From the NCBI GenBank assembly GCA_049294075.1, contig JBAQCK010000138.1, positions 38,361 through 102,360 of the forward strand: 64,000 nt of DNA, read 5' to 3'. The DNA is from Bacteroidales bacterium. GTDB taxonomy: Bacteria > Bacteroidota > Bacteroidia > Bacteroidales > VadinHA17. The translations under genes were made by a program, and so were the position numbers. Under the pieces are notes generated by a model. It worked only from the letters and a program-made list of their open reading frames with translations, had not been told where the DNA came from and did not search any database. This document shows, in pieces, positions 19,283 to 41,907 of this stretch. The stretch's first letter is position 1. The number at the start of each line of letters is the position of its first letter.

Positions 19283-20230
19283 TCAAACCAGGATCTTTGT
19301 AGTAAGGTTGGTGATGCTTTTCCGGATGTCAAGGAACATATCGCCGTCCCTGCTGTCATCCTGCTCGACGATCATGTACTTCATCCCTGCCACGTCTTTC
19401 GCTGCAATGATCTCCTTGAAATTGACTACACCTTCTCCGACCGGTGCGACGTTATCCTTTACAACATCAAAGTAAGGAGGAAGCTGCTGATAACCGTCTT
19501 TCAGGTGGTAAATAGGGAATCTTCCGGGATATTTGTTGAAGATATCCACCGGATTATGACCGGCCTGTGTTACCCAGAACATATCCATCTCCATAATCAC
19601 CAGATCCTTATCCAGTTCAGCGAGCATCACATCGAAATAGGGGACTTTTCCCTCCACTGTTGCAAACTCAAAATTGTGGTTATGATAACCGAACTGCAGT
19701 CCGAATTCCTTCATTACCTTTCCAATTTCATTCCAGTTTGCGGCCATTTTCTGGTAAGTGGCTATTGAGTTTCGCATCTCCTCAACTATCCATGGCTGGA
19801 TGCAGTATTTGGCTCCGATAATGGCATGATCCTCAGCCATCTTTCTGGCACTATCGAGAGTAACGCCTGCTCCCTCAACCTGGGTGTGGCTGCTTAAAAT
19901 CTCCATTCCAAGATCATTCACAAGTTTCTTAAAGTCGGCCGGTGCATAGCCATAAAACTTGCCATCGACATAATCAGCAAGCTCTACATACTTGTAACCA
20001 AGGTCGGAAACCTTTTTCAGTGAACCAGGAGCATCTGTTGCCATCGCATCCCTGATTGTATAAAGCTGAAGGCCGAGATTAAATGATTTCGGATCGACGA
20101 TTACAGGTTCCGGAGCCTTCGCGGCCTTATTCGAGGCGTTCCGGCAGGAAGACTGTGATAAAACGAAAGCTCCGAGAGCGCCAGCAGCTGACACTCGCAG
20201 AAATTCTCTCCTGGATTGTGATTTTTTCAT
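19283..20230 (-). CDS. TAT-exported sugar phosphate isomerase/epimerase (xylose-isomerase-like TIM barrel)
   Basis: Twin-arginine signal SRREFLRVSAAGALGA. The TIM-barrel family assignment comes from overall pattern only. Confidence 0.65.
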   Translation of the reverse strand: MKKSQSRREFLRVSAAGALGAFVLSQSSCRNASNKAAKAPEPVIVDPKSFNLGLQLYTIRDAMATDAPGSLKKVSDLGYKYVELADYVDGKFYGYAPADFKKLVNDLGMEILSSHTQVEGAGVTLDSARKMAEDHAIIGAKYCIQPWIVEEMRNSIATYQKMAANWNEIGKVMKEFGLQFGYHNHNFEFATVEGKVPYFDVMLAELDKDLVIMEMDMFWVTQAGHNPVDIFNKYPGRFPIYHLKDGYQQLPPYFDVVKDNVAPVGEGVVNFKEIIAAKDVAGMKYMIVEQDDSRDGDMFLDIRKSITNLTTKILV

Positions 20231-20325
20231 CAGTATATAATTTTGATTTTAAAGGTCTGATGGAACCCACATGTTTGAAAATTATATACATACGTGTTTG
20301 TGTATTTGATACATGTGGGTTTCAT
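20224..20325 (+). repeat. conserved ~100-bp intergenic element, copy A
   Basis: Aligns by eye with 30794-30900 and 41803-41907. Hairpin arms are 20262-20273 (GGAACCCACATG) and 20312-20323 (CATGTGGGTTTC). Confidence 0.8.
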
Positions 20326-20594
20326 AGTGGTAATTCTAAATGATTATAAGTTAATTGTTTGTTTTAACGAGATATAACTTCCAAAAATAATACAATTCTT
20401 AAATGAATTTAATTGAATTTCGATTTTTCTGCTTTATTCCTGCAGGCGGAATAGCAGAAGTATGCTTTGAAAAGCCTGCTGATCTTGCTTTCGACGAAAA
20501 GCATTAACTTGCTTTGGAATTTCCAGGAGAGTCCATAAATCCTGATGAAAGCTTTGTATAAAAACTACAGGTATAACAAAAATTTTATAAGAAC

Positions 20595-21772
20595 ATGTCC
20601 GGAATTATCATTATCATGACCATCATTCTTGTTTCATCGTGCGGTTCGAGGCCGTTATCGGAGAAAAAGACTGATACAGAGTTGAAGTGGTCGGTCAGGA
20701 TGGCCAACACGGTCATCAACAGGTCTGACAGTCTTGTCTTTTATGTCGACCGGCACCCAAATGGGCATATGATGTTGCTTTCCTGTGAATGGGCATGGAC
20801 CGTCTGGGAGCTGTTGATCCCTTATACTCCGGATACATGGAGGAATGGGTAGATTATTTCGTACAGCCAGATGGCAGTGTTCTTGATTACAGAAAAGAGG
20901 AATATAACCTTGACAGGATTTTTCCCGGCAGGAACGTGCTGACGGTTTACAGGAGGAGAGGGGATGCAAAATACAAGACTGCCCTGGACGGATTAATTGA
21001 CCAGCTCCGCGATCATCCTAAAACCCAATCGGGCGGTTACTGGCATAAAAAGATATACCCGTGGCAGATGTGGCTTGACGGGATCTTCATGGGATCGACC
21101 TACATGGTTCAGTATGCTTCCGAATTCGGCGCACCGGAATGGTTTGACGTTGCCGTGAACCAGGCAGTGATGGCTTATGAGAAGACACTCGATAAGGAAT
21201 CGGGATTACTTATGCATGCCTGGGATGAAAGCAGGCAGCAGAAGTGGTGCGATCCTGAAACAGGCCGTTCTCATTATCCATGGAGTCGTGCAACTGGCTG
21301 GTATCTGATGGCCCTTACGGATATCCTGGAATATCTTCCTGAGGATCATCCCGGAAGGGTCGATTTGCTCAGGATATTACAATCCACGTCTGAAGCTCTC
21401 CTGAAAGTGCAGGATCCAAATACCGGGCTCTGGTTCCAGGTGCTGAATCAGGGCGGGAGGGATGGTAATTATGTTGAAGGATCAGGTTCGGCAATGTTTG
21501 CTTATGTTTTTGCCCGTGAGGCAAACAAGGGATTTCTCGATAAGACTTACCTGGAAATCGCTGAAAAGGCATTTGACAACATAGTAAAGGAACTAATTAC
21601 AATTGATGAAAGAGGCAACCTGACAATGCATAATATAGTCGGAGGATGCGGTCTGGGAGGGAATCCATACCGTGATGGTTCATACGAATACTACGTCAAC
21701 GAAAAACGTGTTGACAATGACACTAAAGGTGTGGCTCCCTTTATTCTGGCAGCGCTGGAACTGGATAAATAA
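20595..21772 (+). pseudogene. GH105/GH88-type unsaturated (rhamno)galacturonyl/glucuronyl hydrolase, disrupted
   Basis: Lipoprotein signal plus N-terminus lie in frame 0. The GH-like sequence PKWAYDVAFL continues in another frame after the A3 run at 20759-20761, then meets an in-frame TGA at 20786-20788. The remaining 327 aa are intact (YWHKKIYPWQMWLDGIFMG...). Confidence 0.6.
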
Positions 21773-30793: not shown

Positions 30794-30900
30794 TTTTCAT
30801 CATAATCTAATTTTGATTTTAGCGGTATGATGGAACCGCGCATGATTGAAAATTATTTTCATTAAGTGTTTGTGTTTGAAATCAATCATGTGGGTTTCAT
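30794..30900 (+). repeat. conserved ~100-bp intergenic element, copy B
   Basis: Hairpin arms are 30832-30849 and 30882-30898. The flanking and loop blocks AATTTTGATTTTA and GTGTTTGTGT are shared with copy A. Confidence 0.8.
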
Positions 30901-31034
30901 ATATTTCCGGTGAGGAGCCAGGGGCATCCCGGGTAACAAATATGGATTTTCTCTTCATCATTTCAGCCAAAGATTGTATTTTTAACATTCCAAATCAGGT
31001 CTTGTCATTTTTAACAATCAAAATTTATTGAATT

Positions 31035-31871
31035 ATGAAGATTGAGTTGAGATATGCAGTGCATCCTGACGATTTCAGGTCGTATGATACCGGAAAACTG
31101 AGGAAGGAATTCCTGATAGAGAAGGTGTTTGTTCAGGATGAGATAATGCTTGTTTATTCAATGTACGACAGGTATATCGTGGGTGGCGCCATGCCTGTTG
31201 ACAAAGTCCTTAAGCTTGAGTCGGCTGATGATCTTAAGGCTTCTTATTTTCTCGAAAGAAGAGAAATGGGAATGATCAATGTCGGTGGTGAAGCCGAAAT
31301 TGAAGCAGGCGGGGTGACATATAATGTCGGGTTCAAGGAGGCGCTATACCTTGGCAGGGAGACAAATGACGTGTTTTTCAGATCGAAGGATGCCTCAAAT
31401 CCGGCCAGATTGTATATTAACTCGGCTCCGGCCCACCATAAGTATCCTTCAAGAAAAGTCACCCTGAGGGATGCAGAGATTGTCACACAAGGATCCGCCG
31501 AAGCCTCCAACCACCGGACGATCAACAAGCTTATTGTGAACAGCGTCCTTCCGACATGCCAGCTTCAGATGGGGATGACGGAACTTAAGACAGGCAGTGT
31601 ATGGAACACCATGCCTGTTCATACCCATAACCGCAGGATGGAAGCATACTTTTACTTTGAACTCCCGGATAAGCAGGGTATTTGCCATTTCCTGGGGGAC
31701 CCTGACGAAACCCGTCATATCTGGATGAAAAATGAGCAGGCGGTGCTGTCACCTTCGTGGAGCATTCATAGCGCCTCAGGCACATCCAGTTATACATTCA
31801 TCTGGGGAATGGCCGGTGAGAACCTTGATTACAGCGATATGGATGTCCGACATCCCGATACTCTTAAATAA
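31035..31871 (+). CDS. kduI: 5-dehydro-4-deoxy-D-glucuronate isomerase
   Basis: 278 aa, MKIELRYAVHPDD..., cupin His cluster (MPVHTHNRRMEAYFYF). Confidence 0.9.
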   Translation: MKIELRYAVHPDDFRSYDTGKLRKEFLIEKVFVQDEIMLVYSMYDRYIVGGAMPVDKVLKLESADDLKASYFLERREMGMINVGGEAEIEAGGVTYNVGFKEALYLGRETNDVFFRSKDASNPARLYINSAPAHHKYPSRKVTLRDAEIVTQGSAEASNHRTINKLIVNSVLPTCQLQMGMTELKTGSVWNTMPVHTHNRRMEAYFYFELPDKQGICHFLGDPDETRHIWMKNEQAVLSPSWSIHSASGTSSYTFIWGMAGENLDYSDMDVRHPDTLK

Positions 31872-31877
31872 CATTTA

Positions 31878-32681
31878 ATGGAAACTGTAAAGGAATTATT
31901 TGATCTGAAGGGCAAGGTGGCCCTTGTTACCGGTGGAACTCATGGTATCGGACTGGCAATTGGCCTTATGCTGGGAAAGGCGGGAGCCAGGGTGTGCGTT
32001 AATGATCTCAGCACTGAGAAGCTTGCCCTGTGCAGGGAGGCATTCGGGAAGGAGGGTCTGAGTGTTTACACGCTGGTGTTCGACGTCACCGACGAAAAGG
32101 ATGCAGACAGGGGGATATCACAGATTGAAGCCGATGAAGGTCCTGTTGACATCCTTGTAAATAATGCCGGAATAATAAAAAGAATACCGATTCTCAGCAT
32201 GCCCGTCGCGGAGTATAAACAGGTCATTGACGTGGATCTGGTTGCCCCTTTCATTGTCTCCAGACGTGTAGCCCCGAATATGATATCAAAGCGAAGCGGG
32301 AAGATAATCAACATGTGTTCTATGATGAGCGTTTACGGCCGGAATACCGTGTCAGCTTATGCTTCAGCAAAGGGAGGTCTTGCGCTTCTTACAAGGAACA
32401 TGACATGCGAATGGGCAAAATACAACATTCAGATTAACGGGATCGGTCCCGGATACATTGAGACCGCTCAGACAGGTCCGATTCGTGAAAACGGTCATCC
32501 GTTCAACGACCTGGTAATGACCAGGACTCCGGCAGGTAGATGGGGTCAGCCTGAGGACGTGGCCAACGCTGCTTTGTTTCTTGCATCAAGGGCAAGCGAT
32601 TTCGTCAACGGGCATATTCTGTTCGTCGACGGAGGCATTCTTGCCAACTTCGGCTACGTGAAAGGAGAAAACGATTTATAG
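31878..32681 (+). CDS. kduD: 2-dehydro-3-deoxy-D-gluconate 5-dehydrogenase (SDR)
   Basis: TGGTHGIG, YASAKGG, and immediately downstream of kduI. Confidence 0.8.
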   Translation: METVKELFDLKGKVALVTGGTHGIGLAIGLMLGKAGARVCVNDLSTEKLALCREAFGKEGLSVYTLVFDVTDEKDADRGISQIEADEGPVDILVNNAGIIKRIPILSMPVAEYKQVIDVDLVAPFIVSRRVAPNMISKRSGKIINMCSMMSVYGRNTVSAYASAKGGLALLTRNMTCEWAKYNIQINGIGPGYIETAQTGPIRENGHPFNDLVMTRTPAGRWGQPEDVANAALFLASRASDFVNGHILFVDGGILANFGYVKGENDL

Positions 32682-33506
32682 ATTATTTTCCGCCTCCCTG
32701 GCTCTTGCATTGAAATACAGAATGCTTGAGAAGATCGGAAGCAGAGGCAGGGTGATGGCGTTCACCACAGCCGACAGAATAATGTAAAGCGGCCTGGTGC
32801 TGATTTCAAGGGCAGCCGTGGCCTCTTCAGGATTGCTGACCGCCGAAAGGAAACTTCCTGTAAATGGCAGCAGTACCAATCCGGACAAAAGAATCGATAT
32901 AACAAGCAAAAGAATTATGAAAACCGCTGTCCAGCCGAGGTTGTTCCAGAAATTCCGGTGGGCAAGGGTTGCCGTTCTGACTATTGCATGAGCGATAATG
33001 GGCCCTTCAACCATCATTACAGGAAGTATGAAAAGATAAAGGGTCATGATATATACGCCTGCAAATAAAGCCCCGACAAACAGGAGAATAAGTCCGAGGA
33101 AAAGGGCAAAAGAGCCCACAAACGCCAGTATTACAAGTATAAGGAGATAGGGGACATAGTATCTCAGCGATTTCACCAGGCACTTCAGGAAATTGTATTC
33201 CCTGTCAAGCGGATTGAACATTACAAAATACTGCAGAATAACCGTGAACAGCACATTTACAAGTGTGAAAATGATCATCGGCCATTTGAATTCATTAAGC
33301 TTATTCATCATTTCATCCATATTGAAGGTCTGGTAATCGCCGATATCTATCCTGATGAATGTGCCCAGATACTGAATGACAAGTCCCATTGCAAATGAGA
33401 TAAGGAAAAGCCCCACGAATCTTTTCTTATAAAAATCCCACAGCGAATTCATTGCACTGTCGATAGTATGAGCCTTGTACAGGGGGTGATTTTCTATTGG
33501 TTCCAT
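32676..33506 (-). CDS. polytopic membrane protein, unknown function
   Basis: Six or more hydrophobic helices. No catalytic motif recognised. Confidence 0.6.
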   Translation of the reverse strand: MEPIENHPLYKAHTIDSAMNSLWDFYKKRFVGLFLISFAMGLVIQYLGTFIRIDIGDYQTFNMDEMMNKLNEFKWPMIIFTLVNVLFTVILQYFVMFNPLDREYNFLKCLVKSLRYYVPYLLILVILAFVGSFALFLGLILLFVGALFAGVYIMTLYLFILPVMMVEGPIIAHAIVRTATLAHRNFWNNLGWTAVFIILLLVISILLSGLVLLPFTGSFLSAVSNPEEATAALEISTRPLYIILSAVVNAITLPLLPIFSSILYFNARAREAENNL

Positions 33507-33556
33507 TTAAACCTGCTTCAATTAATACTTGTTTACGTTCCCGGCCTTGTTTTGCA

Positions 33557-34156
33557 TTACTTTCCCGGCCTCCAGCCGCGGATCACATTTGCGAAAGGGA
33601 ATATATGACTTTTCTTGCGGGGATTGAATATACCCTCATTTACCGACTTTACGTCCTCGATGGTGTAAAAAGCCCTGGAGTTGAAAGAAGTGATAATATT
33701 TATTACGTTCTTAAGTTCACTGCGGTGAATGATTGAATAGATTATGTGGATTTTTTCCTTTGCACCGTGCGCTTCAATGGTTGTGGCTCCGAATCCGTTT
33801 GAATTCAGATTTCTGACAAGCTCCATGCCGTTCTCGCTTACAAAAACCCTTATCATCTGGATACCCATTGCCAATCGTTCCTCAATTTTCATCCCGACAA
33901 AATTCCCTGTGGCGAATCCGGCTGCATAGGCAACGTAATTAATGTAGTTATCAAGATTCTGCATGATCTTGCTGATTGCAATGATCCATATGAGTACTTC
34001 AAAGAATCCGAGAATCGGAGCTGCTTTCCTGTTCCCCTTCGAGACGAAGATGATTCTCATCGTGCCTATCGATACATCGCAGATCCTTGCCAGAAATATC
34101 AGGATAGGCATGACAGCATAATCGAAAATTTCTGAGTCGAAAAATGATGTCTCCAT
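33557..34156 (-). CDS. UPF0316/DUF2179-family membrane protein
   Basis: N-terminal 3 TM segments (LIFLARICDVSIGTMRIIF) plus a C-terminal soluble domain. Confidence 0.6.
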   Translation of the reverse strand: METSFFDSEIFDYAVMPILIFLARICDVSIGTMRIIFVSKGNRKAAPILGFFEVLIWIIAISKIMQNLDNYINYVAYAAGFATGNFVGMKIEERLAMGIQMIRVFVSENGMELVRNLNSNGFGATTIEAHGAKEKIHIIYSIIHRSELKNVINIITSFNSRAFYTIEDVKSVNEGIFNPRKKSHIFPFANVIRGWRPGK

Positions 34157-34296
34157 GATCGGGTTATTTTACCGGCTAAAGATAGTAATTGTAGTGAAGG
34201 AATTATAGCAGACCGGATTGCTTTATCGATGTGCCGTAATTCCATTTCGTTCATTATAGTTCTTTATATCTTATCTTCGCCTTAAATTTAAATCAA

Positions 34297-35073
34297 ATGT
34301 CGAGATTCAAACTTACAATAGAATATGACGGGACAAGGTATTCCGGGTGGCAGATGCAAAAGGGTGGCAAATCGGTTCAGGGTGAAATTGTTGATGCCTG
34401 CAGGGATCTGTTCGGAGTGGAAGATATAGATGTGTTCGGAGCCGGCCGCACCGACAGCGGTGTACATGCCATTGGCCAGGTTGCTCATCTTGAAGCAACC
34501 ACCGACCTGAACCCCTTAAGGATCCGTTATGGAATAAACGACAGGCTTCCGCATGATATATCCATTCTCAATGTTGAAAAGGTGCAGGATGGATTCCATG
34601 CACGGCATGATGCAGTGGCCCGGAGTTATTTTTACCAGATCAGCCGCCGCAGAACATCTTTTGGGAAAAAATATGTCTGGTGGATAAAGGATCAGCTGGA
34701 TGTCGATCTGATGAATGAAGCGGCGAAGCATTTTCCGGGACTGAAAAACTATAAGTCATTCACTGATGAGGAACAGGAGCAAAGATCAACGAAGGTCGAG
34801 ATAATGCACTCCAAAGTTTATGATTACGGCGATATGCTGCTGTTCCATGTGATCGGATCGCATTTTCTTTGGAAGCAGGTTCGCAGAATGACAGGAGTGG
34901 TTATTGAAGCCGGACGTGGCAAGCTTGATCCGGGAGATATCCCCGGATTTTTCAGGAACAGGTCCGATGTACCGGCCGGACTTACAGCGCCGCCAAGTGG
35001 TCTTTTCCTTGAGAGGGTATATTATCAGGATGAAAAAATAAATTTCACAGCCCGGCCGGTTATCAGTTTATGA
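34297..35073 (+). CDS. truA: tRNA pseudouridine(38-40) synthase
   Basis: YDGTRYSGWQ and the GAGRTDSGVHA catalytic Asp motif. Confidence 0.92.
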   Translation: MSRFKLTIEYDGTRYSGWQMQKGGKSVQGEIVDACRDLFGVEDIDVFGAGRTDSGVHAIGQVAHLEATTDLNPLRIRYGINDRLPHDISILNVEKVQDGFHARHDAVARSYFYQISRRRTSFGKKYVWWIKDQLDVDLMNEAAKHFPGLKNYKSFTDEEQEQRSTKVEIMHSKVYDYGDMLLFHVIGSHFLWKQVRRMTGVVIEAGRGKLDPGDIPGFFRNRSDVPAGLTAPPSGLFLERVYYQDEKINFTARPVISL

Positions 35074-35128
35074 CTTGTGCGACAACTTTTTTTTGTTTGT
35101 CGGGAACAATTTCGTAACTTTTCACCTT

Positions 35129-35176
35129 TTAAAAAAAGATACTATTATGAAGTTAAAAAAAGATACTATTATGAAG
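35129..35176 (+). repeat. perfect 24-bp tandem duplication spanning a start codon
   Basis: TTAAAAAAAGATACTATTATGAAG occurs twice, at 35129-35152 and 35153-35176. Confidence 0.95.
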
Positions 35177-36136
35177 CGACGCGATTTCATCAGGACGACC
35201 TCACTGGCTGTGCCCGTTATTGGTCTTTTCCCTGCTGACCTGAGCAGGATAGCGAGAATAAGTGCTCCCGGAGGTATCGAAAAAAGAGCCCTTGGAAGGA
35301 CAGGCGAGATGCTCTCAATTATTGGTTTTGGAGGCATTGTGGTTATGAACGCCACAACTGAAGAGTCATCAGCCCTTGTACGTCAGGCAATCGAAGCCGG
35401 GATTAATTATTTCGATGTAGCCCCGTCATATGGAAATGCCGAGCAAATGCTTGGCCCGGCACTGGAGCCTTACAGAAAGGATGTATTTCTTGCCTGTAAG
35501 ACAGGCAAAAGGAAAAAAGCCGAAGCCCGTGCCGAACTTGAACAGTCGCTTAAGAATATGCGGACTGATCATTTTGATCTCTATCAGCATCATGCAGTCA
35601 CCTCCCTTGAGGATGTTGACACCCTGCTGGGTCCGGGAGGAGCCATGGAGACTTTCATCGAGGCCAGGAAGGAGGGCAAGATTAAATACATCGGGTTCTC
35701 AGCTCACTCCGTTGAAGCCGCAATGGCCATGATGGAACGCTTCGACTTCGACAGCATCCTTTTCCCTTTCAACTATACAACATGGAATTCAGGGAATTTC
35801 GGCCCTCAGGTGCTGGCCCGAGCCCGTGAGAAGAAAATGGGAATCCTTGCCCTGAAGGCAATGGCAAAAGGCCCCTGGGCAAAGGGAGCCGACAGGTCGG
35901 CTTATCCGAAATGCTGGTACGAACCTCTGGTAACGCCTGAAGATATAAAGATGGGATTGCGATTCACCCTCAGTCACCCTATAACAGCTGCTGTTCCTCC
36001 GGGCGAAGCCGAATTGTTCAAAATCGCACTCGGGATGAGAAACGATCTCAAACCTCTGAAAAAATCAGAAATAAAAGCCTTAAAGGAAAAAGCTGCCGCG
36101 GGTGTTCCCCTGTTCAGTTACAAAGGCACCGTCTGA
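35171..36136 (+). CDS. TAT-signal aldo/keto reductase
   Basis: MKRRDFIRTTSLAVPV signal, then an AKR core (GINYFDVAPSYG, DLYQHH). An alternative in-frame start at 35147 is created by the duplication. Confidence 0.8.
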   Translation: MKRRDFIRTTSLAVPVIGLFPADLSRIARISAPGGIEKRALGRTGEMLSIIGFGGIVVMNATTEESSALVRQAIEAGINYFDVAPSYGNAEQMLGPALEPYRKDVFLACKTGKRKKAEARAELEQSLKNMRTDHFDLYQHHAVTSLEDVDTLLGPGGAMETFIEARKEGKIKYIGFSAHSVEAAMAMMERFDFDSILFPFNYTTWNSGNFGPQVLARAREKKMGILALKAMAKGPWAKGADRSAYPKCWYEPLVTPEDIKMGLRFTLSHPITAAVPPGEAELFKIALGMRNDLKPLKKSEIKALKEKAAAGVPLFSYKGTV

Positions 36137-36150
36137 GCAGGATCGACCGG

Positions 36151-36582
36151 CTAATCGGCAGTGTAGTTAAGCCGGAGGTCAAGCTCGCGGTCGTAAACGT
36201 ACCAGCAGGCATCCTCGCACTGCGTCCTGGTAAATTTTGTCCTTGGAATTGCTGAGTCGACTGCTGTATAGGTTTTGCCATTTCTCTCATAACTGGCAGT
36301 CGCCGTGTATTTCTTATTTAGCCTGACATCTAACCTGTAGATGTCAGAGGGGGGATTTACCGTGTTCAGAAGCACCCCGTCCTCCAGTTCGCCCTCATAC
36401 ACATTAATTGTCGCAGCCGGATTGTTCTCCGAGAATTTGATAAGCAGATAGTCGCTTGCAGGCTCATTGGAAGTGCAATCGCCGCAATCGGCAATCCATC
36501 CCTGTTCCTCGCACGAGAACGCAGCGGCGAGAACCAGGAAAAGAAAGATACCAAGGCAATGTTTCGTGATTTTCGCTACCAT
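36151..36582 (-). CDS. hypothetical lipoprotein
   Basis: Signal peptide plus lipobox (AAAFSC). 143 aa. Confidence 0.6.
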   Translation of the reverse strand: MVAKITKHCLGIFLFLVLAAAFSCEEQGWIADCGDCTSNEPASDYLLIKFSENNPAATINVYEGELEDGVLLNTVNPPSDIYRLDVRLNKKYTATASYERNGKTYTAVDSAIPRTKFTRTQCEDACWYVYDRELDLRLNYTAD

Positions 36583-38015
36583 TCTATTGTCTTTTCATGT
36601 TTTTTGACCCGGCTCAGTCTGTAGCTGTAAGTGAAGCCCAGCCTGCCCCAGAGAGGACCAATTTTATAGAATTCGGTTTTCAGATATTCAATACCTGCAC
36701 TCACAGCCAGGTTTGACCTTTCGAACTTTATTCCTGCGGCCGGCATTATTCTTGCCTTACTTTCGGGCCGGGCAATCGTTCCATTGAAAGCGGGGCCGAA
36801 GTTATATCCTGCCGACAGGGAAGCAGAGGCCATAATGGTGAATCCCGAAGGTCTCTCCAGAAGTGTGAAGTCCTTGAATAGTCCTGCGTAAGCCAGGGAG
36901 CTTTTATCGAGATACTGGTAAAACTCATTGTCGCCGGTTTCCTTCATGACTCTTGTTCTGAAGGGTTTTGTATCAAATCCGGCCATGAATCCCGCATTGA
37001 GGAGCGGTTCTTTGAATGAAAGCATCAGTCCGGCCAGAAAATCCCTGTTGTTGGCCCTGGCATTGGCCGACAGGGAGATCACATCAATTCTTAATCCCGG
37101 TTTGCCCTTTATATTATATTTTTCAAGAAGTGAAGTGATATCCTTTCTTCCGAAAGCTGCTGCCACGGTATAGGGATTGACTCCTCCCTTTTCCGGATCA
37201 TTCCACAGGTCTCCTTTTTTTAGAAGAAGCTCTGCTGCCGGGATATGGTTCGACTGGATAGCCAGGGCCAGTGCATTGTAATTATAGATGTTCTTTTCAT
37301 ACAGGTCGACACCCTCCTTGAGCAGCAGGCTCATTATCGCGGTGTCACCTTTCTGGGCTGCTATAAGAAATGGGGTGAAGCCTTCCTGGTCCCTTGCTTC
37401 CAGATTGGCACCGTTTTGAAAGAGCAAATCGGTTACATCGGCATATCCCGAAAGGATAGAGGCCATCAGCGGGGTTGTTCCGTCATCTGACTTCAGGTTG
37501 CAGTCTGCATCATAATAAAGCAGGAGGTCAGTCATCAGCATATCACCGTTCACCGCGGCGTAATGTAACGGAGTGGCGCCGTGATTGTCAGGAAGATCAA
37601 TATCTGCCCCGCCCCTGATGAGAGTCTCTGCAATTTCAGTGTTCATATTTTTGACTGCAATCAGGAGAGCAGTCTCATGCCCGGCAGTTTTCTTATCTAT
37701 ATTTGGATTCCAGGCCAGCAATGCTTCCACCGCAGAATGCCTGTTATTTGCAACGGCAAAGATCAGGGGCGTTGCTCCCTCGTAAGTCTCCGCGTCTATT
37801 TCGGCTCCTTTTGAAAGAAGTCTGTTGACTTCGGTGTGGAGCCCCTTTGATGATGCAATCATGAGATTGTATTCAAGCGCGCCCTCGGTGTCCATCGGTA
37901 TGTAATCGAGAGTGTCAAGAATTGTAATAACCTGTCCTGATAATCTTTGCAGCGGGAAGGTCAGATTAGCGAGGATCAGCGTTATGGCAAATATGCTACT
38001 TCGTGTTAATAACAT
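36576..38015 (-). CDS. exported ankyrin-repeat protein with C-terminal beta-barrel-like domain
   Basis: Signal peptide. About 8 ANK units (G.TPL..A......V..LL..GA). The last ~170 aa show alternating-hydrophobic strands and end in ...GFTYSYRL...IEW. Confidence 0.7.
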   Translation of the reverse strand: MLLTRSSIFAITLILANLTFPLQRLSGQVITILDTLDYIPMDTEGALEYNLMIASSKGLHTEVNRLLSKGAEIDAETYEGATPLIFAVANNRHSAVEALLAWNPNIDKKTAGHETALLIAVKNMNTEIAETLIRGGADIDLPDNHGATPLHYAAVNGDMLMTDLLLYYDADCNLKSDDGTTPLMASILSGYADVTDLLFQNGANLEARDQEGFTPFLIAAQKGDTAIMSLLLKEGVDLYEKNIYNYNALALAIQSNHIPAAELLLKKGDLWNDPEKGGVNPYTVAAAFGRKDITSLLEKYNIKGKPGLRIDVISLSANARANNRDFLAGLMLSFKEPLLNAGFMAGFDTKPFRTRVMKETGDNEFYQYLDKSSLAYAGLFKDFTLLERPSGFTIMASASLSAGYNFGPAFNGTIARPESKARIMPAAGIKFERSNLAVSAGIEYLKTEFYKIGPLWGRLGFTYSYRLSRVKKHEKTIEW

Positions 38016-38162
38016 ATTCGCAAAGTTAGTTTTTTGGCCATTCGGTGTTTGAAATTTCTGAACAAAAAAACAATATTTGCAAAACCTGTAAGTTAATTTT
38101 TATGAAAGTTCAATGCCAAACTTGAATTCTGTTAATAAAACATATATTTTTATCCCCTAAAA

Positions 38163-39479
38163 GTGAAATTCTTGACCATTTCGAAGAAAATCCTCCTGGT
38201 TGTAATTTTGTCGCTGGTGGCGCGTTACAGCCCCATTGCAGTGGAGAAACCAGGCAACCCCGCCGACAGGCTGGCGCCTGCCTACGTGAGGCTTACAAAT
38301 ACCGATTCGTCGGTTTCGGAGTTTGACGGCTGTGTCCCTGTCATCAATTCCTTCATGAAGAAGTGGTCCATCCAGGGTGCATCCGTGGCGATCGCAAGAG
38401 ATGGAAAACTTGTGTATGCAAGGGGATTTGGATATGCCGATACAGCGGCCGGGATTGAGATACAGCCTTACAGCAAATTCCGGATAGCCAGTATTTCGAA
38501 GCTGGTAACTGCAGTCGCAATTATGAAACTGAGGGAGGATGGAAAGCTTTCACTCGACGACAGGGTGTTCGGTCCGGAGGGTGTTCTTAATGATTCATGC
38601 TATTGTGACGCCAAAGACAAAAGAGCCTATAACATAACCATTGCTCACCTGTTGTCGCACGAGGGAGGATGGTCGCAGCGTTACGGCGATCAGATGTTCA
38701 TGCCTCATCAGGTGGCCAGTCAGATGAAATGTGAGCTTCCGGTAGATACCCGGACCATTGTCCGGTTTGCCCTTTCAAAGAAGCTTCATTTTACTCCGGG
38801 GACAGGTCGTTCTTACTCAAATCTGGGATACAGTATACTTGGACTTGTGATTGAAAAGGTTTCCGGACTGCCGTACGAAGAATACTGCAGAACGGCAATA
38901 TTCGAACCCCTGGGGATTTACGACATAGTCCCGGCCAAAAACCTTCCTGATCAGAAAGCTCCGTTTGAGGTCACCTATTATGAACCTGCAGGTATGCCGA
39001 TGCGGCCTTCTGTTTACGGTACCGGAGAGTTGGTTCCTGCCCGTTACGGAGGGAACGATGTTGAGACTCTGGGTGCAGCCGGTTACTGGCTTGCAACGGC
39101 GCCCGACCTCATGAGACTGGTTCTTGCTGTTGACGGATTTGATTATAATGATGATATTCTTACCGATGGAAGTATAAGTTTAATGACGGACGTGAACAAC
39201 AAATTCTCGCCGGTCGGATGGAAGACCACCTACGAAAACGGTACATGGATCCGCACAGGTTCCTTCGCGGGAACTGCGGCCATGATAAAGCGCCAGCCCG
39301 ACGGCCTGTCATGGATAGTGCTTCTTAATACAAGCGCCTGGAACGGTCCGGGAATCCATACCTACATAAGCAGTATGATGGCGGGAGCGGTTTCAAAGAT
39401 TGATAAATGGCCGGAATACAACCTGTTCGACAATACGCTTCCGGTTCCGATACGATTTGAGCTGACAGGAATCAACTAA
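38163..39479 (+). CDS. serine hydrolase, class C beta-lactamase/PBP family
   Basis: S-x-x-K motif (ASISKLV) and a YSN motif. GTG start. Confidence 0.75.
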   Translation: MKFLTISKKILLVVILSLVARYSPIAVEKPGNPADRLAPAYVRLTNTDSSVSEFDGCVPVINSFMKKWSIQGASVAIARDGKLVYARGFGYADTAAGIEIQPYSKFRIASISKLVTAVAIMKLREDGKLSLDDRVFGPEGVLNDSCYCDAKDKRAYNITIAHLLSHEGGWSQRYGDQMFMPHQVASQMKCELPVDTRTIVRFALSKKLHFTPGTGRSYSNLGYSILGLVIEKVSGLPYEEYCRTAIFEPLGIYDIVPAKNLPDQKAPFEVTYYEPAGMPMRPSVYGTGELVPARYGGNDVETLGAAGYWLATAPDLMRLVLAVDGFDYNDDILTDGSISLMTDVNNKFSPVGWKTTYENGTWIRTGSFAGTAAMIKRQPDGLSWIVLLNTSAWNGPGIHTYISSMMAGAVSKIDKWPEYNLFDNTLPVPIRFELTGIN

Positions 39480-39482
39480 GGA

Positions 39483-40208
39483 ATGTGCTTTACAGTCAAT
39501 GTAAACTTAGTAAAGGATGAACTTGAAAACAGGTACGGGGTTTCTTTTCCCGACCGAGACAGGTATCAGCCCAGTTACTATTATCATGCATTCAGTCTGC
39601 CTGAGCTCCCGGCCATCTGCCTGGATGATCCGGAAAGGGCCCGGCTTCTTAAATGGGGTCTGATTCCGTCCTGGACAAAGAAACCTGAGGATGCAGATGA
39701 AATAAGATACAAGACATTCAATGCCAGGGCTGAAACCGTATTTTCAAAGCCTTCGTTTTCAAGATCATTCAGATCAGGTCGCTGCATTATCCCGGTTAAA
39801 GGATTCTTTGAATGGCAGCATGCAGTTAACGAAAAGATTCCATGGTATATCCGCCATGCAGGTGAGGAGATATTTTCACTGGCAGGTTTGTACGACAGGT
39901 GGACAAATACAGCAACGGGAGAGGTCCTTGATACCTTTACGATAGTGACCACCGATGCAAACGATCTGCTCGCCGTTATTCACAACTCGAAGAAAAGGAT
40001 GCCTGTGATTCTCGACCATGACGCTGAAAAAAGATGGATTAGTTCAGACACTTCTCCTGAGGAAGCGTTTTCACTCCTGAAACCCTGTCCCACGGCTTTA
40101 CTCAAAGCCTGGACGATCAGCAATCTGATAAACAATAAGTCTGCCAACCGGAACACTCCGGAGGTGATAAGGCCTTACCCCCGGCAGAATAACACGCTCT
40201 TTGGCTGA
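39483..40208 (+). CDS. SOS-response-associated peptidase (SRAP/YedK family)
   Basis: Catalytic Cys2 (MCFTV), FNARAET, and the GFFEW motif. Confidence 0.85.
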   Translation: MCFTVNVNLVKDELENRYGVSFPDRDRYQPSYYYHAFSLPELPAICLDDPERARLLKWGLIPSWTKKPEDADEIRYKTFNARAETVFSKPSFSRSFRSGRCIIPVKGFFEWQHAVNEKIPWYIRHAGEEIFSLAGLYDRWTNTATGEVLDTFTIVTTDANDLLAVIHNSKKRMPVILDHDAEKRWISSDTSPEEAFSLLKPCPTALLKAWTISNLINNKSANRNTPEVIRPYPRQNNTLFG

Positions 40209-41802: not shown

Positions 41803-41907
41803 TTTCATCATAATAAAATTTTGAATTTAATGGAAAGATGGAACCGCACATGATGATAATTCTGTTCATCAGGTGTTTATGTTTAAAATCAATCATGTGG
41901 GTTTCAA
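41803..41907 (+). repeat. conserved ~100-bp intergenic element, copy C
   Basis: Hairpin arms are 41840-41854 and 41892-41905. The right half is near-identical to copy B (AATCAATCATGTGGGTTTCA). Confidence 0.8.

Follow-up and report, generated by a model that had tools for sequence, protein, structure and literature searches.

TTCAT has been documented as the adjacent motif of an IS605-family element, together with gene-less derivatives, the PATEs (bioRxiv 10.1101/2023.03.14.532601). Here we describe a repeat of ~100 bp, present in three copies in a 64,000-nt stretch of DNA from a Bacteroidales bacterium (contig JBAQCK010000138.1, positions 38,361 to 102,360 of the forward strand; hereafter "the window"), that resembles PATEs and several other families of short repeat. 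Like PATEs (IS200/IS605 derivatives, for example those related to ISGst5, with the adjacent motif TTCAT), it is short and non-coding, has no terminal inverted repeats and is predicted to form hairpins on one strand; it seems to lie 3' of a fixed 5-6-nt motif, with a related motif at its own 3' end and an internal complement to these motifs, and it inserts in tandem into the end motif of a resident copy and is precisely present or absent at a given site. REP and REPIN sequences of Proteobacteria, which are associated with RAYT/TnpA-REP, are likewise high-copy extragenic hairpins (~100 nt in the case of REPINs), often found between co-directional genes, that spread without a transposase of their own and may have roles in mRNA stability. 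Correia (NEMIS) elements of Neisseria and the ERIC, RUP and BOX repeats are comparable in being ~100-150 bp long, in lying near gene starts as co-transcribed hairpins, in their presence/absence polymorphism between strains and in their capacity to alter expression. Integron attC sites are imperfect palindromes of 57-141 bp that function as folded single strands with extrahelical bases and, like the element, lie directly upstream of the next open reading frame (ORF). We consider it very likely that the three stretches in the window are copies of a mobile repeat, site-specific and non-autonomous, that occurs widely and in multiple copies among uncultured Bacteroidales.

The three copies were first noticed in a reading of the window from its letters alone (the sequence-only reading), which described their length and shared order of blocks correctly. 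All three are on the + strand, are ~101-106 bp long and have a stem of 12-13 bp; they align over ~105 bp with 74% mean column identity, their flanks are unrelated, and the hairpin pattern GATGGAACCNCNCATG..CATGTGGGTTTCA had no matches in 100 shuffles. A covariance model made from 82 family members, scanned against the window with filters off, scored copies A, B and C at 120, 113 and 93 bits, respectively (E 6e-20 to 6e-15), and found no further copy in the 64 kb. The copies, and the gene that copy A abuts, are as follows:

20225-20325, + strand: copy A, 101 bp counting both TTTCAT hexamers, with ~95 bp inserted relative to empty orthologous sites
20225-20230, + strand: left TTTCAT, the target hexamer of copy A; at 20228-20230, its CAT forms the ATG of the minus-strand gene 19283-20230
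19283-20230, - strand: abutted gene, encoding a 315-aa xylose-isomerase-like TIM-barrel protein (Pfam PF01261) with a TAT (twin-arginine translocation)/lipoprotein-like N-terminus; its ATGAAA start is the insertion site
30795-30900, + strand: copy B, 106 bp, at an intergenic TTTCA(C/T) between uxaC and kduI; no abutted gene
41803-41907, + strand: copy C, 105 bp, right end TTTCAA; no abutted gene

The evidence for mobility comes from orthologous sites that lack the element. Sites at the start codon of the copy-A gene compare as follows, with locus labels (L-numbers) for related loci and protein identities relative to the copy-A gene of the window:

Window, reference protein: filled, A-type copy at the ATGAAA start
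L127, 95% identity: filled, a third variant
L125/126, 94% identity: empty
L111/112, 90% identity: empty
L113/114, 88% identity: filled, B-type copy with a nested 20-bp palindrome
L115-118, 83% identity: empty

The empty copy-A site reads ...TTAGAAATTATACC followed directly by ATGAAAAAATCACAA; in the window, ...TTAGAATTACCACT is followed by the insert ATGAAACCCACATG...ATATACTG and then by ATGAAAAAATCACAA. Comparison of empty and filled sites therefore indicates that 95 bp were added exactly 5' of ATGAAA, leaving the hexamer at both ends. At the copy-B site, the empty sequence of L124 (whose KduI is 92% identical) is GTTAATTTTCA-C-ATATTTCC, and in the window GTTAATTTTCA is followed by the insert TCATAATC...GGGTTTCA and then by TATATTTCC. 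At both sites the insertion is 95-100 bp and lies beside a pre-existing TTTCAT, which occurs once in empty sites and on both flanks of filled ones. The same start codon is thus empty in some close relatives and occupied by different subfamilies in others, and since presence is unlinked to relatedness and the subfamilies differ, repeated insertion, or insertion and precise loss, at a single hexamer seems likely. The data already speak against an element confined to orthologous positions and passed on by descent alone.

The element belongs to a dispersed family. A pattern for the left part of the element, AATTTTGAWTTTA-N7-GATGGAACC, which leaves the right arm and most of the stem free, was run against GTDB at one genome per species. 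At least 109 loci matched, in ~55 assemblies that carry the labels Rikenellaceae, Bacteroidales or Lentimicrobium and represent uncultured Bacteroidales, and the right arm, ...CATGTGGGTTTCAT, trails nearly every matched left part. Some hosts carry many copies: at least 13 lie on the 3.36-Mb contig JAXGLU010000001.1, as compared with at least one on JAXGYS010000003.1, and CAZTJT01 has at least 21 loci. An nhmmer profile gave 141 matches in the 0.94 Mb around copies, 25 of them without the search pattern. Eight copies are head-to-tail tandems that share one common TTTCAT. The plasmid, phage and IMG/VR collections held no copies. The sequence-only reading had not recognised the motif as a known one, and indeed nothing in Rfam 15 reached the gathering threshold in the window (the best match, to copy B, had an E of 2.7 in a search allowing E up to 10, and scores were far below threshold); a literature search found nothing relevant on a described start-codon repeat of Bacteroidota. 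One typical copy is on a 2.5-kb contig from a bin labelled Chloroflexi (L077, JANYKH010000091.1), a contig that is probably mis-binned. On JAXGLU010000001.1, at 272-280 kb (L052), there is a ~1.7-kb tandem duplication that includes a gene for a 270-aa lipoprotein; each unit has a full element before the gene and a degenerate remnant, consisting only of the second hairpin (H2, below), after it, and the repeats may have mediated the duplication. A Logan contig from SRR28062829 that bears kduI (L001, corresponding approximately to window 30871-39800) breaks inside copy B, as repeats fragment short-read assemblies.

The feature that the sequence-only reading noted for copy A, that the element contains the ATG of the minus-strand isomerase gene, is the key feature of the family. 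The left end is (T)TTCAT in 110 of 116 copies, and 81 of these 110 have, in this CAT, the initiation codon of an ORF that extends on the opposite strand for 80 aa or more; a further 10 ORFs run off the end of the locus. The same abutment is seen in 8-9 of 10 full-length copies found outside the search pattern. Copy A is therefore a typical family member, with copies B and C in the minority class, having ORFs of only 6 and 4 codons, respectively, at their left-end CAT. The abutted proteins, from ~80 genes, are mutually unrelated (lipoproteins, secreted enzymes, a tyrS-like protein, a ROK kinase, a LytTR response regulator and an NAD-epimerase are among them), and all start with MK or MN. Because TTTCAT is the complement of ATGAAA (Met-Lys), ~78% of copies lie exactly 5' of a start codon, and their orientation there is fixed. 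To our knowledge, none of the Correia, ERIC, RUP and BOX repeats homes to start codons. The composition of the left flank beyond TTTCAT is merely typical of gene starts. The first T of the left hexamer follows the flank (ATTCAT, GTTCAT), with the right end constant as TTTCAT, so any duplication is at most 5 nt, and the left and right hexamers are unequal in several copies.

All three window copies are in divergent promoter regions, as the sequence-only reading stated, but this does not hold for the family. Rightwards of the element, the nearest long ORF shares the strand of the abutted gene in 65 of 91 cases and is on the opposite (+) strand in the other 26, and the element mostly lies 2-100 nt, often 2-60 nt, past the stop codon of the upstream co-directional gene. 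The usual setting is thus a short spacer between co-directional genes rather than a divergent promoter region. The sequence-only reading had also set a regulatory RNA against a plain dispersed repeat or MITE (a transposable element of the miniature inverted-repeat kind) scattered without relation to gene starts; a dispersed repeat is what we find, but its copies are tied to the starts of opposite-strand genes.

On the top (+) strand, the order is TTTCAT, a first hairpin (H1), a second hairpin (H2) and a second TTTCAT, and the predicted DNA fold of this strand consists of the two hairpins. In copy A, their parts are as follows:

20228-20233, + strand: 5' arm of H1, CATCAG, which with wobble reaches TTTCATCAG (20225-20233); from the DNA fold and pair counts
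20239-20252, + strand: A/T-rich conserved box AATTTTGATTTTAA, the H1 loop; from the alignment
20257-20265, + strand: 3' arm of H1, CTGATGGAA, which holds an internal ATGGAA and overlaps the 5' arm of H2
20261-20273, + strand: 5' arm of H2, TGGAACCCACATG, which pairs with CATGTGGGTTTCA
20312-20324, + strand: 3' arm of H2, CATGTGGGTTTCA, which takes in most of the right-end TTTCAT (20320-20325)

The consensus of H1 is CATCAK...MTGATG around an A/T-rich 21-nt loop, and that of H2 is GGAACC(N)CACATG...CATGTGGGTTTC, with 12-20 bp; the 12-bp stem that the sequence-only reading gave for copy A corresponds to the TGGAACCCACATG/CATGTGGGTTTCA pairing, and the G.U pairs that this reading described, at the stem base and additionally in copy B, are present. 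The subfamily of copy B has a bulged G and a longer stem, in which TGGAACCGCGCATG (30831-30844) pairs with CATGTGGGTTTCA (30887-30899). Covariation, which had been suggested as a check, bears out both hairpins, since the pairing of each is kept by compensatory changes. H1 pairs TTTCATCAT(A) with (T)ATGATGGAA; 95% of its cells are paired, and explicit pair counts gave 14 double-change cells, as compared with 2.1 in shuffles, with four compensatory combinations (CAT/ATG, CAG/CTG, CCG/CGG and CTG/CAG). H2 also has 95% of cells paired, with 35 double-change cells as compared with 18 in shuffles. Alignment columns 57 and 103 of H2 are A-U in 33 copies and U-A in 28, and there are compensatory variants of whole arms, CCTCC/GGAGG (L081, L087) and CCCGCA/TGCGGG (L004, L009, L016, L098, L100). 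We relied on explicit pair counts rather than on RNAalifold, which, run on a MAFFT alignment, recovered only the outer 7 pairs of the stem because the inner stem is misaligned between subfamilies.

The two hairpins are linked by a single internal ATGGAA, which is complementary, with one G.T, to the left TTTCAT via H1 or to the right TTTCAT at the base of H2. H1, in its 3' arm, and H2, in its 5' arm, share GGAA, and both conserved G.T wobbles come from the single G of ATGGAA. The boundaries defined by empty sites carry no terminal inverted repeats: neither CATAATAT... nor ...GGGTTTCAT is an inverted copy of the other. Several copies have further palindromes nested within them. One, of ~27 bp and GC-rich (CTTCGTCGAGCTCGCAAGCTCGGTTGA, variant AGCTTCGCTGAGCTCGCAAGCTCGGTT), is in the H2 loop of L011, L012, L013, L033, L035, L048, L080, L092 and L095; it is preceded by TTGA or GTTT, of which TTGA looks duplicated, and it appears to be a separate, tiny family of mobile hairpins. 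Another, of ~20 bp (CCTGCCTGTTGGCAGACAGG and relatives), is exactly at the H1/H2 junction, between GATG and GAACC, in L113 (2884-3008), L076, L050 and L080, indicating that this junction tolerates insertions.

The sequence-only reading had argued from G.U pairs for a plus-strand RNA structure over a simple DNA palindrome. Folding leans the same way: predicted RNA folds of copies A, B and C are -28.5, -26.6 and -20.7 kcal/mol on the + strand and -18.1, -17.5 and -17.2 kcal/mol on the - strand, and in the family the + strand is more stable in 82 of 84 copies (means of -22.4 kcal/mol versus -15.6 kcal/mol for the gene strand). The argument from wobble pairs is weaker, since it rests mainly on one nucleotide, the G of ATGGAA. 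With the two invariant G.T pairs excluded, the variable wobble cells of well-aligned stems number 16 G.T versus 13 A.C (9 versus 2 in H1, 7 versus 11 in H2), and a strong asymmetry obtained with free alignment of the arms (290 G.T versus 47 A.C) disappears in well-aligned stems and is not relied on. Because the variable cells are balanced, the preference for the top strand is suggestive only, and a folded DNA strand accounts for it as well as an RNA does.

The conserved box of the H1 loop contains TAATTTTG (20238-20245), which matches the Bacteroides -7 box, TAnnTTTG, on the + strand; on the gene strand the box forms the A-rich leader before the ATG. Diverged copies have lost the TTTG. We rejected two other candidate features. 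A possible gene-strand promoter in the H2 loop, TAATTTTC, has neither a -33 element nor the G that ends TAnnTTTG. Copy A contains, on the gene strand, an ORF of 31 codons (20230-20325, - strand) that runs from the distal ATGAAA to a TGA overlapping the ATG of the gene (TGATG), but an upstream ORF spanning the element is not a conserved feature, as B-type copies stop after 4 codons.

With regard to how the element moves, we tentatively favour transposition by an HUH-type enzyme that acts in trans (IS200/IS605 TnpA-like or RAYT-like), a mechanism that we regard as possible rather than probable. Such an enzyme would cut the element as folded single-stranded DNA; TTTCAT would serve both as the adjacent target motif and as the motif at the element's end, and both would be read via pairing with the internal ATGGAA. 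We favour this model because of the strict 5-6-nt site specificity with the same motif at the 3' end of the element, because hairpins with an internal complement to the motifs occur in the absence of inverted termini, and because of tandem insertion into the end motif and precise presence or absence at a site. An absence of a mobilising gene near copies is expected for an element that is mobilised in trans.

Several observations weigh against the single-strand mechanism. Regular-expression searches of the 0.94 Mb around copies found no ORF with a Y1 or RAYT motif, clustering of 703 flanking ORFs revealed no recurrent transposase-like family, and searches of the same 0.94 Mb for left ends or right ends alone, with inspection of L069, L050, L052 and L053, found no copy whose ends are split by a gene. 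The data fit a 5-bp target-site duplication as well as they fit the arrangement of adjacent motif and end motif, and the strand asymmetry of wobble pairs disappears in well-aligned stems, as described above. In the element, H1 and the target hexamer overlap, as do H2 and the 3' arm of H1, whereas IS608 has two separate subterminal hairpins. A bias towards the lagging-strand template is typical of IS608 and ISDra2; no such bias was seen among the 13 copies on JAXGLU010000001.1, which follow the local gene direction (8 of 13 in the majority orientation), as judged from 8-kb pieces with the origin unplaced. Lastly, the three- to four-fold excess of start codons over their availability is explained only by assumed selection. 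It is because no transposase or split copy was found, because the layout is unlike that of IS608 and because no replication bias is visible that we hold the HUH model tentatively.

Unlike PATEs, the element has no autonomous partner sharing its ends in the 0.94 Mb around copies, its motif and guide pair over 6-10 ordinary base pairs where PATEs use ~4 nt and base triples, its first hairpin includes the target hexamer, one guide serves both ends, and no lagging-strand bias is evident; it is also far shorter than ends that bear omega-RNA. Unlike REP and REPIN sequences, it has no GTAG-type 5' tetranucleotide and no inverted REP doublets beyond the single H2, it is strict in its placement at TTTCAT and start codons, the loci examined have no ORF with a RAYT-like motif, and its hosts belong to another phylum.

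Two other routes of mobility seem improbable to us. The hexamer on both flanks of filled sites and its single occurrence in empty ones, together with the size and copy number of the element, would fit a classical MITE whose movement depends on a DDE transposase and whose insertion duplicates 5 bp of target, TTCAT. We consider this unlikely because there are no terminal inverted repeats beside the putative duplication (CATAATAT... versus ...ACCCACATG, read inward); the inverted repeat that does exist, H2, is internal and asymmetric in position, strict 5-6-bp sequence specificity is unusual for DDE duplications, and the left and right hexamers are not always equal. Correia and RUP elements, by contrast, do have terminal inverted repeats, and their duplications are TA or otherwise short. 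Insertion by a site-specific recombinase of the tyrosine or serine type (integron-, Xer- or IS607-like), for which TTTCAT would be the crossover core and the hairpins a folded site, is about as improbable as the MITE. The core is identical at both junctions, tandem arrays share it, and a folded imperfect palindrome with a bulged base recalls the logic of attC; on the other hand, R''/R' core sites (RYYYAAC/GTTRRRY) are missing from the sequence, the ORFs flanking copies include no recurrent recombinase gene, and the element moves alone, without a cassette gene. Unlike attC sites, it has neither attC cores nor an integrase or attI context, and it is the element, not a gene, that is present or absent. 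We take the resemblance to dif to be weak. Readings of the element as dif/Xer-like or attC-like were dropped, since their core sites are absent from the sequence.

The remaining alternatives are functional. The sequence-only reading proposed that the element is linked to uronate catabolism as a plus-strand regulatory RNA. In this scenario a cis-regulatory RNA, or a small RNA starting from the TAATTTTG box and ending in H2, would govern the downstream uronate genes (GH105, kduI-kduD), and indeed copies A and B are upstream of GH88/105 and kduI and have a TAnnTTTG-like box ~12 nt upstream of H2 on the + strand, which is the strand with the more stable RNA folds. We nonetheless regard this as very improbable. 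The family sits beside ~80 unrelated genes, copy C precedes iorA/iorB-like genes, only 26 of 91 family copies have a + strand gene to the right, and the regions upstream of GH88 and in the uxaC-kduI spacer lack the element in relatives that are 90-94% identical. Diverged copies do not keep the TTTG of the box, an RNA starting past the box could not form the covarying H1, and no U-tract follows H2. In addition, two promoter-like boxes of the Bacteroidota type (TTG...TAnnTTTG-like) are conserved across orthologues and lie outside the element:

20382-20395, - strand: native promoter-like box of the TIM-barrel gene, TTG..TATTATTTTTG
30974-30986, + strand: native promoter-like box of kduI, TTGTATTTTTA/G, a -7-like box between the element and the ATG

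These are likely to be the native promoters of the TIM-barrel gene and kduI, and as they are outside the element, we conclude that GH88/105, kduI and the TIM-barrel gene are independent of it. The uronate link is coincidental, two insertions having fallen in one pectin/uronate locus.

A second functional alternative, which is compatible with mobility, is that the element is a selected cassette of the 5' untranslated region (UTR) or intercistronic RNA, in which H2 stabilises or processes mRNA, the A-rich end serves as an initiation region and the excess at start codons reflects positive selection. Placement speaks in its favour. Of the ATGAAA sites left unoccupied in these loci, 1093 are in coding sequence, 285 are intergenic and 90 are at gene starts, so that if only coding insertions were purged, ~24% of copies would be expected at starts, rather than the ~78% found; the position of most copies just past the stop codon of an upstream co-directional gene points the same way, as does the leader described below, whose A residues match both the native profile and published determinants of initiation. 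Moreover, in L012, L018 and L057, where the native ATG is mutated, an in-frame ATG within the element keeps the ORF open. Set against this, the gene strand has a C.A mismatch in both hairpins where the top strand has G.T, its folds are the weaker ones, H1 on that strand would sequester the start codon, and orthologues work without the element. We therefore think of the cassette as a somewhat doubtful addition to the mobile repeat.

Even if the element is only a mobile repeat, it is probably transcribed on the gene strand, within a 5' UTR or intercistronic RNA, given that native promoters lie upstream and that most copies are within pairs of co-directional genes; REP and Correia elements, in other phyla, are likewise transcribed as hairpins in mRNA. 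On the gene strand, H2 would remain a stable hairpin (mean of -15.6 kcal/mol), with an A-rich leader after it. An element placed exactly at the ATG would spare all upstream signals and would replace the last ~25 nt before the ATG with the leader ...AAAAUCAAAAUUAUAUUAUG, in which A is at -3, -6 and -11 to -14 relative to the native ATG. Native starts in host genomes have A peaks at -13 to -11 (49-54%) and at -3 (42%). In Flavobacterium johnsoniae, initiation is promoted by A-3, A-6, A-12 and A-13 (PMC6847099). An A-rich leader fits initiation in Bacteroidota, which proceeds without a Shine-Dalgarno sequence, and would explain why insertions at start codons survive.

The annotations given by the sequence-only reading to the flanking genes hold. 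To the right of copy A is a GH88/GH105 gene (20595-21772, + strand), which in the window is divided between two frames that overlap, 20595-20852 and 20789-21772; in L111 the orthologue is intact and encodes 392 aa, and the break falls between its residues ~55 and ~66, such that the split gene is either a frameshifted pseudogene or an assembly error. Copy B has uxaC on one side and kduI and an SDR/KduD-like gene on the other. Copy C lies between a CarboxypepD_reg-like gene (- strand) and the iorA/iorB-like genes (+ strand), which are not uronate genes. Unrelated to the repeat, a gene for a 479-aa ankyrin-repeat protein (36576-38015, - strand) adjoins one for a 438-aa protein of the beta-lactamase family (38163-39479, + strand; both assigned by Pfam).

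What distinguishes this mobile repeat is homing to ATGAAA starts in a phylum without Shine-Dalgarno initiation. A more ambitious version, which we consider possible but somewhat unlikely, is that the repeat is a start-codon-homing element in which ATGGAA, as an internal guide, would read the complement of ATG-AAA, the most frequent gene start in Bacteroidota, so that it would insert exactly between a gene and the signals upstream of it, and which, by carrying a leader that works independently of a Shine-Dalgarno sequence together with a hairpin, would act as a portable 5'-UTR or intercistronic module that rewires operon expression and is possibly mobilised by an HUH enzyme. In the boldest form of this proposal, the plus-strand transcript, comprising the hairpin and the adjacent flank, would be a guide RNA for a TnpB/IscB-like protein. 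An element without terminal inverted repeats whose 6-nt specificity spells the complement of Met-Lys is in any case a natural example of insertion aimed at gene starts, and repeated independent insertions at one start codon offer a simple system in which to study guide-based target choice. The copies also amount to dozens of natural experiments in which the same structured leader of 100 nt is placed before different ORFs, and these would help to test what Bacteroidota ribosomes need upstream of the AUG. For annotation, the repeats occur by the hundred in uncultured Bacteroidales of digesters and sediments, break assemblies and can be taken for riboswitch-like leaders, and a family model would flag the copies. 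If the element proves to be only a selfish repeat, the finding is an ordinary one, but it would still be useful for annotating these genomes.

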